This document shows positions 23,442 through 40,578 of a DNA stretch of 64,000 nucleotides, in pieces. Position 1 is the stretch's first letter. The number at the start of each line of letters is the position of its first letter. The stretch lies in NCBI GenBank assembly GCA_963813155.1, contig CAWEYG010000001.1, positions 79,058-143,057 on the forward strand, in the 5' to 3' direction. The stretch comes from an uncultured Acidobacteriota bacterium. GTDB lineage: Bacteria > Acidobacteriota > Thermoanaerobaculia > UBA5066 > DATFVB01. Under the pieces are notes generated by a model, which did not search any database, had not been told where the DNA came from, and was given only the letters and a program-made list of their open reading frames with translations. The position numbers and the translations under genes were made by a program.

Positions 23442-23497
23442 TCGGGACTGGCCGTAGGATTTCGTGATTGGATGATGAGAGTACGAAAGGACGCTGC

Positions 23498-24502
23498 ATG
23501 AAAAAGACGATTCTTGCCGGAGTCTGTGCCCTGGCCTCGCTTCCCCTGCTCGCAACGGAGCTCAATCCTTCCCCCAAGACCGTGCGCCCCGCCCAACTGA
23601 TCGGCGTGCACCGCACGGACGCCGGGCGAGTCCGGCACGCGCTGGACCCCTCGCAGAACGAGGGAGTCAACGTCGACGTCATCGGCCGCCTGGCGGGCGG
23701 CGGAGGCATCCTGTTCAAGACTTCGCTCGACGTCTCGAACAACACGACCGATGCGACGCGAGTGGACTTTTTTGCCGAGCTGAAAGATTCGGCGAACGGA
23801 AATTTCTTCGAGGTCACGGGAAGCATCGCGAATTCCGGAGTCACCTCTCCGGGCGGCGGCCAGCTCCTGGACCTCTCGGTTGCGCATTTCGACGACTTCA
23901 TCGACGCGCTTCGGGTATCCGGCGGGGTGAGCGCGCAGGAGGAGGCGGACGGCCTGCTCGGGTCGCTCGTCCTGGAGTTTTTCGGGTTCTCTCCGGCTCT
24001 GGGCAAGGCCTCGGCGGAGGCTCGCTTCTACAGCACGGTCCCCGCGGGCAATGGATCCTTCTCGGGAGGAACGATCGGCGTCTCGGCGAACGGCCACGAG
24101 TTCACCGACTCGGAGCCCACTAGCCTCGTCGGCATCGTCCGCAACTCGCTTGGAGAGGCGAACACGCCGCAGATCTACACGAACTTCTTCATCTGCAACG
24201 AGGGGTTCGTCGATCCTGTCAACGGCCTCACGGGAAACACGGTCACGCTCCGACTGACGGGATATTCGAACAAGGACGGCAGCGTCACGGGAACGCTCAC
24301 GCTTCCCCCGGTCGCGTGGGGCCAGACGACGGTCGTCTCCGACGTCTTCACGGCGCTCGGCGGGAATCACGCGAAGGACGACACGCTGCTCGTCTTCGTC
24401 GACATCACGAGCGGAAACTCGGCAATCTCCGGTCTCGCTTCGAAGAACGATAACCTGACGAAGGACCCCTCGGCCGCGCAACTGCGCCCCGCGAATTTCT
24501 AG
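23498..24502 (+). CDS. secreted hypothetical protein (334 aa), Gly/Ser/Thr/Asn-rich, no recognisable homology
   Basis: Signal peptide MKKTILAGVCALASLPLLA. RBS GAAAGGA. Followed by an intrinsic terminator. Confidence 0.6.
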   Translation: MKKTILAGVCALASLPLLATELNPSPKTVRPAQLIGVHRTDAGRVRHALDPSQNEGVNVDVIGRLAGGGGILFKTSLDVSNNTTDATRVDFFAELKDSANGNFFEVTGSIANSGVTSPGGGQLLDLSVAHFDDFIDALRVSGGVSAQEEADGLLGSLVLEFFGFSPALGKASAEARFYSTVPAGNGSFSGGTIGVSANGHEFTDSEPTSLVGIVRNSLGEANTPQIYTNFFICNEGFVDPVNGLTGNTVTLRLTGYSNKDGSVTGTLTLPPVAWGQTTVVSDVFTALGGNHAKDDTLLVFVDITSGNSAISGLASKNDNLTKDPSAAQLRPANF

Positions 24503-24525: not shown

Positions 24526-24553
24526 GGGCCCGCGAGAGCGGGCCCTTTTTCTT
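24526..24553. terminator. bidirectional intrinsic terminator (GGGCCCGC-GAGA-GCGGGCCC + TTTTTCTT) between convergent genes
   Basis: Perfect 8-bp GC stem with GAGA tetraloop and a U-tract on the + strand. Serves the 23498 gene (+) and probably cstA (-). Confidence 0.6.
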
Positions 24554-29890: not shown

Positions 29891-30301
29891 TCAGCGGATT
29901 TGACGGACTCGATCTTTCATGATGCACCGGTCCATGGCGACGCCGACGCCGGCGGCCTCCAGCCGGCGAGCCGCCTCCGGATCGACGACGCCTTCCTGCA
30001 TCCAGAAGAATCGAGCCTTCCGCTCGATCGCCGGCTCGACGAGAGCGGCGACCGCCGCGGAATTGCGAAAGACGTCCACGATGTCGATGCCGACGCCGGC
30101 TGGAATCTCCAGCAGGGACCCGTAGCAGCGGCGGCCGAGGACCTCCGGATGATTCGGGTTGACGGGGATCACGTCGTAACCGCTTTCGATCAGGAACTGC
30201 ATGATCGAGTGGGAAGCTCGAAACGGGTTCGTCGACGCGCCCACGACGGCGATCGTGCGGGCGCTCGCGAGGATCTCGTGAATCTTGCCCGGCTCGTTCA
30301 C
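29891..30301 (-). CDS. CoA-binding domain protein (YccU-like)
   Basis: TIAVVGASTNPFRASHSIMQFLIESGYDVIPVNP...EIPAGVGIDIVDVFR. GTG start overlaps the tonB stop by 4 nt. Confidence 0.75.
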   Translation of the reverse strand: MNEPGKIHEILASARTIAVVGASTNPFRASHSIMQFLIESGYDVIPVNPNHPEVLGRRCYGSLLEIPAGVGIDIVDVFRNSAAVAALVEPAIERKARFFWMQEGVVDPEAARRLEAAGVGVAMDRCIMKDRVRQIR

Positions 30302-31384
30302 TTGAATTTCCCTTCTTCCCCCGGCCGGATGTTGTAGAAGAACGTGATCGTCACTCCCTCGCGATCCTCGTGCAGGTCCTTCGGCAACGGGCGAAACGGG
30401 CTCGAGGTCGCGATCGCCTGGAACGCGGCGTGGTCGTACGGCGGGATCGTCGAATCGCGCAGGATCTTCTCCGCCTCGACGCTGCCGTCCGCCCGAATGT
30501 AGAAGCGGATCGACAGCTTCCCCTTGACCCCCATTCTCGCCAGGTCCGGCACTTCCCAGTGCAGCTTGATCCGGCGAATCATCTCCTCCGCGTAGTCGCC
30601 CCAGTCGTACCATTGGGTGTCGAAGGAAATCGGCCCCGAGTCGACGAAGCCGCCCGACTCGTTCGGGTTCGGCGACCCGCCCTCTCCGGAGAACGGATTG
30701 CCCGCCGCGGCCTTGATCGCCCGGTTCAGGTTCGGCAGCCGCTGCGCAGCGCCCGGCGTGACCGAGACCCCGGACGGTGCCGTTCCCGCCGGTGACGGCG
30801 TCGTCGAAGACGAGGCCGCCGCGGACTGGGGCGAGGCCTGCGCCGGCGTCGGAGCCGAAGTCGCGGCCGAAGCGCGGCTGCCTTCCTTCCCGCGGGGTCC
30901 CGGGCGAAGGCCCTCGATGCCCGATTTCTGCGCGACGAACGGCGTCTCGGAGGGAGGCTTCGATTTGTCGCCCCCCCCGGCGCGGCGGGTCTTGTCCGAG
31001 GGCGCCGCGTTCCGGTTCGCGTTCTGGCGCGAGGGGCCGGGCGACTCGGCGAAGAACTTCACCGGAACGCGAAATTCCGCCTCGCGGGCTTCCCGGGCGG
31101 CGCGCATTTCCGCCGTCTCCCTGGGCGGCAGCGCGCCCATCGGGTGGAGGACCATGAAAATGACGAGAAGAAGGTGCAGGATGATCGAGATCAGGATCGC
31201 CCGCTCGACCGGGAATCGACGCTGGGGGTGCTCGATCCGTCTCGACGATTTCGTCGATCCGGGGCGCGGGAACGTCCTCGGGCCCCGGACGGCGCGAAAC
31301 GCCCGGCCTCGCCGCGGCCGCCCGCAGCCCGGGCAGGAGCCGGCCCACCTCGGCCTGTTCTTCTTCCTCTTCGACGCCGAACAC
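30298..31384 (-). CDS. tonB: TonB family energy transducer; 1-nt frameshift at a G5/C5 run (31224-31228) separates the N-terminal/TM part from the rest
   Basis: C-terminal TonB domain KLSIRFYIRADGSVEAEKILRDSTIPPYDHAAFQAIATSSPFRPLP. Pro/Ala/Ser-rich spacer. TM helix AILISIILHLLLVIFMVLHP preceded by PQRRFPVER lies in-frame upstream of the track ATG (31155) but has no in-frame start. Removing one C restores a continuous ORF from GTG 31384 (VFGVEEEEEQAEV...). Confidence 0.7.
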
Positions 31385-31441
31385 TTCTTCTTCTAACTCC
31401 AGCAGATCCTATTTTGTTTCCGGATGCCCCCGACTCGCGCC

Positions 31442-31471
31442 TTGCAAGCCCCGCAACACTTCTGATATAAA
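31442..31471 (+). promoter_or_regulatory. sigma70-type promoter (TTGCAA-17/18nt-ATATAA/TATAAA) at the head of the rimP-nusA-infB cluster
   Basis: cTTGCAAgccccgcaacacttctgATATAAAtg. The -10 element abuts or overlaps the first in-frame ATG (31471). Confidence 0.45.
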
Positions 31472-32034
31472 TGCCCAGCGCTTTGGAAAAGCGGGCTTTT
31501 CGCCCGCTTTTTTGTTCGGCGCTTTCGGAGGCGGAGACGAACGGTCTCAGCGAAAAAATTCGGGAAGAGATCCGGAAAATCGCCGCAGAGAGCGGGTGTG
31601 AGCTCGTCGCGATCGAATCGACCGGAACCGGCCGGTTCCAATCGCTGCGCCTGGTCCTGGACAAGCCCGAGGGCGGCGTGACCCTCGAGGACTGCGAACG
31701 GGTTTCGCGGGATGTTTCTCCCCTGCTCGACGCGGAATCGGGAATCCCGCACGCATACACCCTCGAGGTGAGCTCCCCCGGCCTGGACCGCAAGCTCTAT
31801 TCGATCGAAGACGCGAAGAAATTCGTCGGCCGGAGGGTCCGGGTGAAAACGGCGCTTCCCGTCGAAGGCTCCCGGAATTTCCGGGGAAAACTGGACTCCG
31901 TGGAGGGGGACGGACGGCTTCGGATCGTGGACGAAGAGAGCGGAAGAATCTATAATTTCAGTTTTCGTGAGGTTCAGGTCGCCCGCCTCGAGGTGGATTG
32001 GCCGGACTCGGGCGAGAGGCGAAAGAAGAAATGA
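31471..32034 (+). CDS. rimP: ribosome maturation factor RimP (start uncertain)
   Basis: LSEKIREEIRKIAAESGCELVAIES...LEDCERVSRDVSPLLD...YTLEVSSPGLDR matches RimP. The only in-frame starts upstream of the conserved N-terminus are ATG 31471 and TTG 31483. Both overlap the promoter/hairpin. Confidence 0.75.
   Translation: MPSALEKRAFRPLFCSALSEAETNGLSEKIREEIRKIAAESGCELVAIESTGTGRFQSLRLVLDKPEGGVTLEDCERVSRDVSPLLDAESGIPHAYTLEVSSPGLDRKLYSIEDAKKFVGRRVRVKTALPVEGSRNFRGKLDSVEGDGRLRIVDEESGRIYNFSFREVQVARLEVDWPDSGERRKKK
31487..31516 (+). terminator. terminator-like hairpin with U-tract in the rimP 5' region (candidate leader attenuator)
   Basis: aaaaGCGGGCttttcGCCCGCtttttTGTT lies 15-20 nt after the promoter -10 and before the conserved RimP N-terminus. 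Confidence 0.4.
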
Positions 32035-33530
32035 CAATGATCAACGATCTGGGTTCGGTGATCCGACAGGTATCCCGCGAGAAGGACATCGACGCGGAGA
32101 AGATGTTTTCCGCGCTGGAAGAAGCGATGGCCGCGGCAGCGCGACGTTTCTACAAGGTCAAGGAGATCGTCGCCCGGATCGACCGCGAAACGGGCGAAAT
32201 CACCGCCTACACGCCTCGGCGGGTCGTCGACACGATGCCGGAGCCGCTTCCCGAACCGGTCGAGCCGGCGGAGCCTCTCCCCGAGGGAGTCGAACCGCCG
32301 CCGGACCCGGCGACGCTCGTCCTGCTCGACGACGCGAAATCCATCGTGCGCGAGGCCGGCGCCGGCGGCACGGTGCGAGTCCTTCGCCCGGGTCAGGATG
32401 GCGGCGAAGCGTACGAGGTCGAGGAGCCGGAGCTCGGAGACGAGCTGCGGATCTACCGCTCGACGGAAGGTCTCGGCCGAATCGCGGCGCAGAACGCGAA
32501 GCAGGTCCTTTACCAGAAGGTCCGCGAGGCCGAGCGCGAGCGCATCTACAACGAGTACATGCCGAAAGTCGGCGAGCTCATCAACGGCACCGTCAAGCGG
32601 TTCGAGCGCGGCGACATCGTCGTCGACCTCGGCCGGCTCGAAGCCGCGATCCCGCGCGACCAGCAGTCCCGCGCGGAGCGATACGGCCAGGGAGAGCGCG
32701 TCCGCGCCGTCATCGCCGACGTGCACAAGAACCCGAAGGGCCCGCAGATCGTCCTGTCGCGGACCGACCCCCGCCTGCTCATCCGGCTCTTCGAGATGGA
32801 AGTTCCGGAAATCTACGACGGTACGGTCGTCATCAAGGGCGCCGTCCGGCAGCCGGGAGAGCGCGCGAAAGTGGCCGTGCTCTCGCGGGAGCGCGACGTC
32901 GACCCGGTCGGCGCGTGCGTCGGAATGCGCGGCAGCCGCGTTCAGGCGATCATGCGCGAGCTCCACGGGGAGAAAATCGACGTCATCCAGTACAGCGACG
33001 ACCTCATCACGTTCGCGCAGAACGCCCTGTCTCCGGCGAAGATCACGCGGGTTTCCCCGATTCACCACGAGGACGCCCCCCTGACGCTGGATTGCGTGGT
33101 CGAGGACGAGCAGCTCTCGCTCGCGATCGGCAAGAAGGGTCAGAACGTCCGCCTTGCTTCCGCCCTCATCGGCGCGAAGATCGAAATCAAGAGCGAGGCC
33201 GAGGTCAAGGGCGAAGTCGCGGAAGCCCTCGGCCGAATGATTCGGGCGTCGCAGCGGCAGCAGACCCCGGTCGCCGACGTCCCGGGAATCGACGAAGAAA
33301 CCGCCGCGAGTCTCCGGGAAGCGGGGATCGAGAACCTCGACCAGCTGCTTTCGCAATCGACCGAGTCGCTCGCTCCCGTCGGCGACATGGGCGCGGAGAG
33401 GGCGCAGGAAATTTTGAACGCGGCTCAGGAGCTCGACAACCCGACTCCGGAGGAGGAGCCGGCGGACGAAGAGCAGGGCTCCGCCGAAGGCGAGCCCTTC
33501 GAAGAGCCCGCCGGCAAAGAAAAGGCGTAA
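32031..33530 (+). CDS. nusA: transcription termination/antitermination factor NusA
   Basis: N-terminal domain, S1, two KH domains, and one C-terminal acidic HhH repeat (GIENLDQLL). ATG overlaps the rimP stop (ATGA). Confidence 0.95.
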   Translation: MTMINDLGSVIRQVSREKDIDAEKMFSALEEAMAAAARRFYKVKEIVARIDRETGEITAYTPRRVVDTMPEPLPEPVEPAEPLPEGVEPPPDPATLVLLDDAKSIVREAGAGGTVRVLRPGQDGGEAYEVEEPELGDELRIYRSTEGLGRIAAQNAKQVLYQKVREAERERIYNEYMPKVGELINGTVKRFERGDIVVDLGRLEAAIPRDQQSRAERYGQGERVRAVIADVHKNPKGPQIVLSRTDPRLLIRLFEMEVPEIYDGTVVIKGAVRQPGERAKVAVLSRERDVDPVGACVGMRGSRVQAIMRELHGEKIDVIQYSDDLITFAQNALSPAKITRVSPIHHEDAPLTLDCVVEDEQLSLAIGKKGQNVRLASALIGAKIEIKSEAEVKGEVAEALGRMIRASQRQQTPVADVPGIDEETAASLREAGIENLDQLLSQSTESLAPVGDMGAERAQEILNAAQELDNPTPEEEPADEEQGSAEGEPFEEPAGKEKA

Positions 33531-36286
33531 ATGGCGAAGATTCAGGTACACGAACTGGCCCGGCAGATGGGCGTCGGCGACCGCGAGCTGATGTTCCTTC
33601 TGCAATCGATCGGCGTTCAAGTCAGCTCCGCTCAGGCGGACCTGGACGAATCGACGGTGCTCGCGATTCTCCAGGGCAAGACCCACGCCCCGAAATCGTT
33701 GATCGTCCGCGAGGAGAGCAACCGCCCCAAGACGGCGCAGATTCCGAAGAGTGCGCTCTCGCGAATCAAGATCGTCGACAAGCCCGCGGCCCCGGCCAAG
33801 AAGACCGACGCGCCTCCGCCGAGAAGCGGCGAAGCCCGTCCGCGTCCGCCGGCCGAACCGGCGAGGACGGCCGTCGTCACGTCCGAGCCCGAGGAACCTC
33901 AAAAGCCGGAAGCTCCGGTTCCTCCGGTGCCCCGCAGGATCGTTCTCCCCCCGAAGAGGCCCATCGTTCGCCCCCCCGTGCGAACCCAGGGAGCGCCGCC
34001 GCCCCGGCCCGCGGGGCCGCCGGGAGCTCCGCTCCGCCCGCCGCTTCCCCCGGGCCGCCCCGGAGTCTCGGCTCAAAGCGGCCGGCCGGCCCCCTCGGTC
34101 TATCGACCCGCGCCCGGAGCGCCCGGAGCGCGCATCCCGGGGGCCCGCGTGCCGGTTGGAGCGCCTCCCCGCCCGGGCGGCCGCCCGCTGCGGCCGGGAG
34201 AGGTCCCGACGCCGGTGCCCGAGGACGTCAAGTCGGCCCGGCGTAAGAAGGAAGAAGAGTCGAAAAAGGCCGCGGCGAAGAAAACCGGCGCGCGCCCGAA
34301 GATCAACGCGGCGGACGAGGTGGATCTGCGCGACTACGTCGGCGAGTACCGGGAAGACACCTACTCCGACATCACGCTGCCCCTGATCGACAAGAACGCG
34401 ACGCTCGAAGAGCCCGCCGGACCGAAGACTCTCTCGAAGTCCGCCCTGCGGCGGGCCGGAAAAGAGACCCGGCACGACGACACGGGCAAGATCGTGGAAT
34501 TCAAGAAAGCCGCTTCCGACCGGGCCGGTCTTCCTGTCCGAAGGCGTCACCGTCAAAGAGCTCTCCGAAAAGCTCGGGGTCCTCGGGCGCGACCTCGTTC
34601 AGAAGCTCCTTCGCCGGGGAATGATGGTCACGATCAATCAGACGCTGCCGGCGCAGATCGCCGTCGAGATCGCCCGAGGAGATCGGCGTCGAAGCCGCCG
34701 TCGTCTCGTTCGAAGAAGAGATGGAGCTCGCCCGGGAAGAGAAGTCCGACGCGAACTCGCCCGAAAGCATGAAACCGCGCGCTCCCGTGGTGACCGTCAT
34801 GGGCCACGTCGACCACGGCAAGACGTCTCTCCTCGACGCGATCCGCGAGACCAAGGTCGCGGCGAGCGAGGCGGGAGGGATCACCCAGCACATCGGCGCC
34901 TACCGCGTCGAGTCGAAGGGAAGCCCGATCGTCTTTCTCGACACTCCCGGCCACGAAGCGTTCACGCTCATGCGCGCGCGCGGCGCCGCCGCGACGGACA
35001 TCGTCGTGCTCGTCGTCGCCGCCGACGACGGAGTCATGCCGCAGACCGTGGAGGCGATCGACCACGCCCGGGCGGCGAAGGTGCCGCTCGTCGTCGCGAT
35101 CAACAAGATCGACAAGGCCAACGCCAACGTCGAGCGCGTCAAGAAGGAGCTCGCCGACCGCGGCGTTCTTCTCGAATCCTGGGGTGGAGACGTGCCTTCG
35201 GTGGAGGTCTCCGCGCTCAAGAAGGTCGGCATCGACCAGCTCCTCGAGATCATCCGGCTCGTCGCCGAGCTGCTGGAGTTGAAAGCCAACCCCGAAGGCT
35301 ACGCCCGCGGCGTCGTCATCGAGGCGCGCCGGGAAGCCGGACGCGGCAACGTCGCGACGATCCTCGTGCAGAGCGGAACGCTGAAGGTCGGCGACGTCTT
35401 TTACGCCGGCTCCGCATCCGGCCGGCTGAGAGCGATGACCGACGAGACGGGCAAGCGCCTCCAGACGGCAGGGCCGTCGACCCCCGCCGAAATCATGGGG
35501 TTCGAAGAGCTCCCGGCCGCCGGCGATCTCTTCCAGGCCGTCGAGAGCGAGATTCGCGCGCGGCAGATCGTCTCCTTCCGGAAGGAGAAGACCCGCGAGA
35601 AGTCGATGGTTTCGTCTTCGAAGACCTCGCTCGAAGCGCTCTTTTCCCGGATCCAGGAGGGCGCCGTCAAGGACCTCCCGCTCGTCGTGAAGACCGACGT
35701 CGCCGGTTCGGCGGAAGTCGTCACGGGAGCGCTCCGAAAGATGTCGAGCGACCAGGTAAAGGTCTCCGTGCTGCATTCCGGCGTGGGAGCGATCAACATC
35801 AACGACGTTCTCCTCGCCTCCGCTTCCGGCGCGACGATCATCGGATTCAACGTGAGGCCGGAAAAGAAAGCGGAAACCGAGGCGGAGAAGGCGGGCGTCG
35901 ACATCCGCCTCTACACCGTGATCTACAACATCACCGACGACATCCGAAAAGCGATGGAGGGCCTCCTCGAGCCGACGCTCAGGGAAGTGGCGCGCGGCCG
36001 GGCGGAGGTTCGGAACACGTTCAACGTCCCGAAGGTCGGCGTCGTCGCGGGCTGCTACGTCACCGAGGGCACGATCCCGCGATCGGCCCAGGTTCGGCTG
36101 CTTCGCGACAATCGCGTCATCTACGAGGGAAAGATCGGCTCGCTGCGGCGCTTCAAGGACGACGTCTCGGAAGTGAAGACCGGCTTCGAGTGCGGAATCG
36201 GCCTGGATCGCTACCAGGACGTCAAGGTCGGCGACATCATCGAAGCGTTCGCGACCGAGAAGGTCGCCGGCGTCCTGTCGGCGTAG
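33531..36286 (+). CDS. infB: translation initiation factor IF-2; two apparent +1 frameshifts (about 34522-34528 and 34676-34682)
   Basis: IF2 N-domain [15 protein letters not shown]. Pro-rich linker. Then in shifted frames [18 protein letters not shown]...[20 protein letters not shown] and [21 protein letters not shown]...[25 protein letters not shown]-domain through C2 domain to VAGVLSA. Both shifts lie at short G runs. Confidence 0.9.
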
Positions 36287-38327: not shown

Positions 38328-40517
<2,190 letters not shown>

Positions 40518-40547
40518 TCGAACCACCGCGTCTTCTTCAATTTACAC

Positions 40548-40578
40548 GCCGGGCGAGAGCCCGGCGTTTTTCTTTGGA
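40548..40578 (+). terminator. intrinsic terminator after pnp (GCCGGGC-GAGA-GCCCGGC + TTTTTCTTT)
   Basis: 7-bp GC stem with GAGA tetraloop and U-tract 30 nt after the pnp stop. Confidence 0.6.

Follow-up and report, generated by a model that had tools for sequence, protein, structure and literature searches.

Two questions are raised by the short region in front of rimP in an uncultured bacterium of the lineage Acidobacteriota/Thermoanaerobaculia, namely how transcription of the rimP-nusA-infB operon is controlled ahead of its first gene, and from which codon that gene is read. Here we refer to the whole 64,000-nt stretch of DNA that was analysed as the window. On our reading, positions 31442-31545 are likely to hold the promoter and the 5′ leader of this operon, the latter with the transcription attenuator known as rimP-leader, and rimP most likely starts from an ACG codon following a deletion. 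The genes around the site are given below.

30298..31384, − strand: divergent TonB-like gene with a TonB_C domain and a GTG start at 31384, frameshifted in the window
31537..32034, + strand: rimP coding region from its putative start, with RimP_N and RimP C-terminal Pfam domains (E = 5.8e-24 and 2.6e-10, respectively) and the stop codon TGA at 32032-34
32031..33530, + strand: nusA, with NusA_N, S1, KH and HHH domains, its ATG overlapping the rimP stop (ATGA, 32031-32034)
33531..36286, + strand: infB (IF2), in two frames in the window (ORFs 33531-34772 and 34721-36286)

The TonB-like gene and rimP share a divergent intergenic region of ~150 nt, which would therefore hold two promoters. Upstream of the hairpin described below, neither a gene on the + strand nor a tRNA was found that could own it as a terminator. 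The ATGA overlap at the rimP stop and nusA start implies translational coupling; thus, a weak rimP start could affect the translation of nusA too. The promoter assigned to the operon has the following parts.

31442..31447, + strand: −35 hexamer TTGCAA of the rimP operon promoter, its TTG kept in 12 relatives
31463..31471, + strand: extended −10 element TG-A-TATAAA (TG at 31463-64, TATAAA at 31466-71), with a spacer of 18 nt to the −35
31477..31478, + strand: predicted transcription start (A/G), placed by promoter geometry 6-7 nt past the −10 box

The initial annotation of this DNA had proposed a sigma70-type promoter here (TTGCAA-17/18-ATATAA), and its elements were indeed found, with a −10 that is TG-extended; the 17-nt spacer applies if the −10 is read as ATATAA (31465-70), as was chosen there. 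The TCTGnTATA box showed no variation in the 12 relatives (68–98% RimP identity) and the spacer was variable among them. Compared with the consensus, TTGCAA agrees at 5/6 positions and TATAAA at 5/6, the TG is present, the spacer is 18 nt and the final T is missing. A strict sigma-70 scan did not call the promoter at 31442-31471, because the last base of the −10 is A rather than T. The −10 region sequence TGNTATAA is present in a single copy in the 64 kb, where 0.10 would be expected. Among sister strains, conservation starts at the −35 box, and the sequence farther upstream diverges, with an insertion of ~65 nt in one of them (the metagenome-assembled genome L001). With transcription predicted to start at 31477-31478, the ATG at 31471 would therefore fall outside the transcript.

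Directly after the promoter lies the hairpin, with the following features.

31485..31513, + strand: rimP-leader terminator hairpin, GGAAAAGCGGGC / UUUUC / GCCCGCUUUUUU, assigned from the fold, the consensus structure and the published motif
31497..31500, + strand: T run of the loop, with four T, one more than in the sister assemblies L001, L081 and L163 (TTTC loop)
31508..31516, + strand: U-tract TTTTTTGTT, with the tail U6GUU
31514..31522, + strand: post-terminator block GTTCGGCGC, nearly invariant in the 12 relatives and outside any conserved pairing

The core stem, GCGGGC (31491-96) and GCCCGC (31502-07) around a TTTTC loop, folds by itself with −11.5 kcal/mol (z = −3.7). Via the upstream A-tract the stem is lengthened, with 31485-96 pairing with 31502-13, and reaches −18.4 kcal/mol. 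The hairpin GCGGGC-TTTTC-GCCCGC with a nine-residue U-tract was thus located at 31491-31516 as it had been described; its placement 15 nt after the ATG at 31471 had to be corrected, as the core begins 17 nt past that codon. The motif GGGC-N3-8-GCCCNCTTTTT occurs once in the 64-kb window against 0.01 expected. The U-tract sequence TTTTTGTTC is without variation throughout the clade (12 relatives), and the hairpin loops elsewhere in the clade are 3-4 nt. Other pairings seen around the site did not hold up. An outer stem (AGCGCU/GGCGCU) and a small hairpin around the ACG, both from the single-sequence fold, were not conserved in the clade alignment, and the hairpin at 31531-51 around the ACG gave a z of −1.7 only. 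A candidate antiterminator, in which GCUUU of the 5′ segment pairs with AAAGC, was marginal at 5 bp and was not recovered by RNAalifold.

Elsewhere in the window, ordinary gene-end terminators are probable on the + strand at 24526-24545 and 40547-40566, each an 8-bp all-GC hairpin with a GAGA loop and a T5 tail. They lie 24-30 nt past the ends of + strand ORFs (23468-24502 and 38328-40517), from which it follows that the organism employs terminators of the hairpin-plus-T-tract kind.

For the conservation of the leader, we collected loci with the RimP protein alone as query and searched the 250 nt upstream of rimP. A terminator-like hairpin was present within this zone in 153 of the 157 loci, against 18 of the 2268 control windows taken from the same loci (0.8%), and the motif GGG[CT]..[GA]CC[CT]..T4+ was present in 131/156 leaders against 6/2268 controls. 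Within the 12 relatives (68–98% RimP identity) the hairpin is invariant, and the loop and the pre-start region are variable. RNAalifold of these 12 leaders returned the terminator stem, with one compensatory pair, as the only consensus structure, and no conserved antiterminator or larger sensing structure. The stems vary by clade (GCGGGC, CGCGGGC, GCGGCC, GTGGGC, GAGGGC), and other Acidobacteriota clades keep the arrangement. In the alignment of rimP upstream regions, which the initial annotation had named as the check on its proposed attenuator, the hairpin was kept in orthologous loci; an N-terminal extension from the ATG, which it had set against the attenuator, was not conserved.

Two clades showed peculiarities of their own. 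Another Thermoanaerobaculia clade (L030, L033, L036, L037, L044 and others, at ~2861-2924) carries an extra invariant 5′ hairpin, CUUUCAAG-GGGN-CUUGAAAG, whose 3′ arm overlaps the A-tract of the terminator 5′ arm. This hairpin could be an antiterminator; its sequence shows no variation from which covariation could be read. In L006, L007, L009, L012 and L089-L098, the rimP ATG lies 6 nt past the U-tract (GGCCGCTTTTTTTGTTCTATG) and ~17 nt before the rimP core, with no Shine-Dalgarno sequence, and the stem in this L006-type clade is GCGGCC/GGCCGC, without the GGGC/GCCC motif.

The hairpin is an ordinary member of the described rimP-leader (Naville & Gautheret 2010), in its general form. Called "the most ubiquitous transcription attenuator" (Naville & Gautheret 2010, Genome Biol 11:R97, Fig. 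2b; PMC2965389), rimP-leader precedes rimP-nusA-infB in most bacteria. It consists of a short GGGc...gCCC stem and a U-stretch that together form an intrinsic terminator in the 5′ leader, located 4-130 nt from the rimP start and without an antiterminator, for which NusA feedback was proposed (PMC2965389). Each of these traits has its counterpart in the window. The leader lies directly upstream of rimP-nusA-infB, as assigned by Pfam and ORF order, with the hairpin 20-30 nt before the RimP core. The GGGc(...)gCCC stem motif is present as GCGGGC...GCCCGC, is unique in the window and is followed by the U-stretch (U6GUU) in Rho-independent form. As for distance, the last base of the U-tract is 31516 and the candidate start follows at 31537; in clade relatives the ATG lies about 12-55 nt past the U-tract. 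The lack of a conserved antiterminator among the 12 leaders (RNAalifold) agrees as well. The suggestion of a possible leader attenuator of the nusA-infB operon is thus supported, since it agrees with a published pan-bacterial class and conservation speaks strongly for it here. In form, GGAAAAGCGGGCTTTTCGCCCGCTTTTTTGTT of the window is nearly the same as the published leaders of Myxococcus, GAAAAGTGGGCCGCGTGCCCGCTTTT, and Syntrophobacter, GAGAAGTGGGTTTACCGGCCCGCTTTTTTTGTT, with which it shares a short G-rich 5′ arm, a C-rich 3′ arm, a U-stretch and a short distance to the start. The window differs in its stem, GCGGGC/GCCCGC rather than the common GUGGGC/GCCCAC (U-A pair to C-G), and in that its promoter abuts the hairpin. 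The published list of rimP-leaders has no Acidobacteria entries, though two Acidobacteria genomes were analysed (PMC2965389). In the present sample, rimP-leader is extended to Acidobacteriota (Thermoanaerobaculia, Terriglobia and relatives) and to Nitrospirota.

The corresponding Rfam family, RF01770, is a 102-nt covariance model with a gathering threshold of 47 bits. A scan of the whole window at gathering thresholds returned only a tRNA-Thr and no match to RF01770, and a scan of 31380-31600 at E ≤ 10 gave no RF01770 either, only sub-threshold matches, all of them to terminator ends of sRNAs. RF01770 concerns the same operon and the same idea of a downstream terminator; it differs in describing a gammaproteobacterial tandem-terminator form located downstream of a tRNA. 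The second upstream terminator, with its inverse motif CCCg..cGGG, and the antiterminator of that type are absent from the window leader, which has a single hairpin. The only locus matched by RF01770 was that of Aliidiomarina (L015, 52.9 bits). Five Gammaproteobacteria loci (L004, L005, L010, L015 and L020) have a tRNA gene upstream of rimP, as with metY in E. coli, and among these five the threshold was reached in L015 only. RF01770 thus misses the general rimP-leader form, and annotation pipelines therefore leave such leaders unlabelled.

Leader termination in this operon has been studied in two model bacteria. In B. subtilis, NusA-stimulated termination in the nusA leader serves as autoregulation, as Mondal 2016 is cited in PMC12288461; in E. 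coli, the terminators t1/t2 lie upstream of rimP in metY-rimP-nusA-infB, and NusA regulates itself and the operon (PMC6511841). Going by these accounts, both the B. subtilis nusA operon (ylxS/rimP) and that of E. coli resemble the window in having one or more intrinsic terminators between the promoter and rimP; leader termination is described in them as experimentally shown, whereas the leader of the window is known from its sequence. With ~60 nt and a single hairpin, the latter also differs from the B. subtilis leader of ~180 nt (PMC2965389) and from that of E. coli, where a tRNA gene and RNase III sites are present.

Taken together, we infer the transcription start, the termination, the NusA dependence and the ACG start to operate as follows. 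An extended −10 promoter of the sigma-70 type would fire at about 31477. After ~8 nt, the RNA would form the rimP-leader hairpin (31485-31513), followed by U6GUU, and this intrinsic terminator would stop a fraction of the transcripts at about +36 to +40, leaving RimP, NusA and IF2 to be expressed from read-through transcripts only. If the leader works as it does in B. subtilis and E. coli, a trans factor would determine what share of the transcripts is terminated. NusA is the most probable candidate, as it stimulates hairpin-dependent termination and would in this way limit its own synthesis. Finally, rimP would be translated at low efficiency from the ACG at 31537, 5 nt past GGAGG. One feature fits this scheme less well. 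Judged by its hairpin and U-tract, the terminator looks strong and not of the weak factor-dependent kind; hence, it is hard to explain how there would be enough read-through for abundant NusA and IF2.

Given the position of the stem, ~8 nt from the predicted 5′ end, it could be asked whether the hairpin is a 5′-terminal stabilising stem-loop instead of a terminator, with the U-tract as a site for ribosomal protein S1 or a translation enhancer. The relatives of the L006 type, whose ATG lies 6 nt past the U-tract with no Shine-Dalgarno sequence, lend this some weight, as the U-tract may aid ribosome binding on their read-through mRNA. We nevertheless consider it unlikely. A GC stem with an adjoining run of T6-T8 was seen in 97% of loci across phyla, the same architecture stands at gene ends in the window, the published class consists of terminators, and for B. 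subtilis and E. coli the sources cited above document leader termination. Moreover, a stabilising role is compatible with that of a terminator, and both are possible together.

Slightly less likely still is that promoter and terminator form a gene of their own for a small RNA of ~37 nt, the operon being expressed by incidental read-through. The promoter is indeed followed directly by a strong terminator, and the weak, sub-threshold Rfam matches were all to sRNA terminator ends. However, no Rfam family was found at threshold, the place directly upstream of rimP is kept across phyla, the hairpin sequence alone is conserved, and the 150-nt divergent intergenic region shows no second promoter that could serve the operon. 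An attenuator of the rimP-leader class thus remains the preferred reading of the hairpin.

The start of rimP is the more unusual part of the locus, and the elements that bear on it are the following.

31527..31531, + strand: GGAGG, Shine-Dalgarno-like, 5 nt before the ACG at 31537
31536..31543, + strand: GACGAACG, the single remaining copy of an 8-nt direct repeat, at the deletion junction placed by alignment with L161
31537..31539, + strand: ACG, candidate rimP initiation codon, which would be the ancestral codon 2

The GGAGG noted initially at 31527-31531 before the conserved RimP N-terminus is present, and it also holds that no canonical start lies between the hairpin and the conserved region: from 31516 to the RimP core there is no in-frame ATG, GTG or TTG. 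Upstream, the in-frame start-like codons are ATG (31471-73) and TTG (31483), and a TTG at 31512 inside the U-tract is out of frame. The ATG at 31471 had been called the only upstream in-frame ATG, which is right as far as ATG goes; the in-frame TTG at 31483 exists too, and the frame itself is due to an extra T. Between the terminator and the RimP core, just one in-frame codon is near-cognate, the ACG at 31537. Among the 157 loci, this species alone has no canonical start in frame close to the conserved Leu; L152, also flagged as having no start, proved to be an unrelated anomaly with no leader.

Two explanations for the missing start had been offered. One, that an indel hides it, fails as an assembly artefact, the same start-less sequence being shared by four independent assemblies (the window, MAG L001, JGI contig L081 and Logan contig L163), and stands in an evolutionary sense, as a 22-nt deletion common to all four. 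The agreement of the four assemblies and purifying selection favour the other, by which RimP is started from a non-AUG codon past the terminator. The four start-less strains differ with pS of 0.09-0.15 and have a pN/pS of 0.06-0.15 (P between 5e-5 and 4e-7), values that cover the four strains of equal length, with L002 left out because of an unaligned internal indel. Such low pN/pS ratios indicate that rimP is still under selection and translated. Accordingly, it is improbable, more so than either alternative reading of the hairpin, that this species carries rimP as a decaying pseudogene or that the missing start is an assembly error. A canonical start is absent and the window demonstrably has indel errors, as such a reading would have it, but the same start-less sequence recurs in the window, L001, L081 and L163, constraint persists in spite of the synonymous divergence between strains, and the rimP ORF is intact, with its stop overlapping the nusA start.

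The origin of this arrangement could be traced in relatives. Those with 79–91% identity begin with M-x-x-x-L (MTNGLSEK in L002 and L161), and the DNA of L161 (91%) reads ...GGAGGCGAA-GACGAACG-TCCGCCGGGGAAAT-GACGAACG-GTCTC, with GACGAACG as the repeat. If the 22 nt delimited by the 8-nt repeats are taken out, the L161 form becomes exactly that of the window species. L164, L165 and L166 have leaders about 22-24 nt longer, with their own ATG, and L166 shares the repeat layout; in the long-leader relatives, at 80–91% identity, a GGAGG box lies ~30 nt upstream of the ATG. The alignment with L161 and the long ATG leaders of L164, L165 and L166 thus identify, at the sequence level, a 22-nt deletion between the GACGAACG repeats, which removed the ancestral Shine-Dalgarno sequence and ATG and left GGAGG-N5-ACG. 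The direction of the indel is given by parsimony over few relatives, and one outgroup, L162, carries a short form together with a GTG. We rejected a simple tandem duplication in L161, because the two copies have nothing beyond the 8-10-nt repeat in common and differ over the remainder of the unit.

The long-leader relatives L161 (255-300), L166 and L164 (~250-300) retain a GGAGG/GGAGA box together with a conserved pseudo-start, in which the opening rimP codons are repeated as a decoy (AAGACGAA[A/C]G) some 22 nt ahead of the genuine ATGACGAA[A/C]G.

It is most likely, from these comparisons, that rimP is translated from the ACG at 31537. ACG is no accepted start in table 11; in E. coli it supports Met-initiated translation at roughly 0.1–1% of AUG (Hecht et al., bioRxiv 10.1101/063800). 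Alternatively, an in-frame ATT at 31558, which has no Shine-Dalgarno sequence, or GAG at 31534 may be used instead. That rimP was kept for a substantial time (pS up to 0.15) by Shine-Dalgarno-driven initiation at the ACG, its former codon 2, is plausible, though we would give it somewhat less than an even chance. If true, this would be a natural and selected bacterial ACG start at the head of an operon that also encodes IF2, and the output of RimP would be lowered relative to NusA and IF2. The loss of the start codon may then be seen as a small natural experiment on how far a strong Shine-Dalgarno sequence sustains a conserved gene on a non-canonical codon. The nearest likeness is infC with its AUU start, again a gene of translation or ribosome biogenesis without AUG, GUG or UUG. 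The AUU start of infC has a regulatory role, is conserved and is sensed by IF3, whereas the loss of the rimP start goes back to a recent deletion in a single species.

The window assembly carries small insertions, of which one bears on the reading frame of the leader. The extra T in the loop run (31497-31500) is probably a +1 insertion error, since the window has further +1 insertions in comparison with L001, and it is this T that brings ATG 31471 and TTG 31483 into frame with rimP. At ~31239, an extra G relative to L001 (GATCCGTCTCG against GATCC-TCTCG) shifts the frame of the TonB-like gene, so that its N-terminus (MFGVEEEE...RIDEIVE) and its TonB_C part stand in separate frames in the window; the gene is intact in L001, L003, L083 and L087. 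In infB, two net +1 insertions were found relative to L001 (~34509 and ~34673-77), where the gene is a single ORF. The splitting of infB, an essential gene, points to indel errors in the window assembly. As a practical warning, the window thus carries +1 indel errors, one of which creates a misleading in-frame ATG.

The least probable alternative is that RimP starts from ATG 31471 or from TTG 31483 and that the hairpin codes for an N-terminal extension of 22-25 residues. In its favour, the ATG-ORF (31471-32034) is open and in frame in the window, and automatic calling produced a comparably long gene on a sister contig (P0001). Against it, the ATG overlaps the conserved −10 box, and in L001, L081 and L163 the loop lacks 1 nt, which puts both codons out of frame. 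Other +1 insertions are present in the window, relatives begin 4 codons before the conserved Leu, strains have unrelated sequence above the −35 box, most changes in the promoter spacer would be non-synonymous in the ATG frame, and the Pfam domain RimP_N begins only at residue 34 of the ATG-ORF.

Two automatic gene calls, P0001 (L163:401-1009) and P0006 (L162:352-894), stretch rimP upstream through the terminator to spurious ATGs; the former runs through the promoter too, and the latter starts upstream of the terminator 3′ arm and the U-tract. Judging from such calls, rimP-leader would appear to cause a systematic N-terminal over-extension of rimP in annotations, and annotation pipelines may call false N-terminal extensions through leaders elsewhere as they did in P0001 and P0006.
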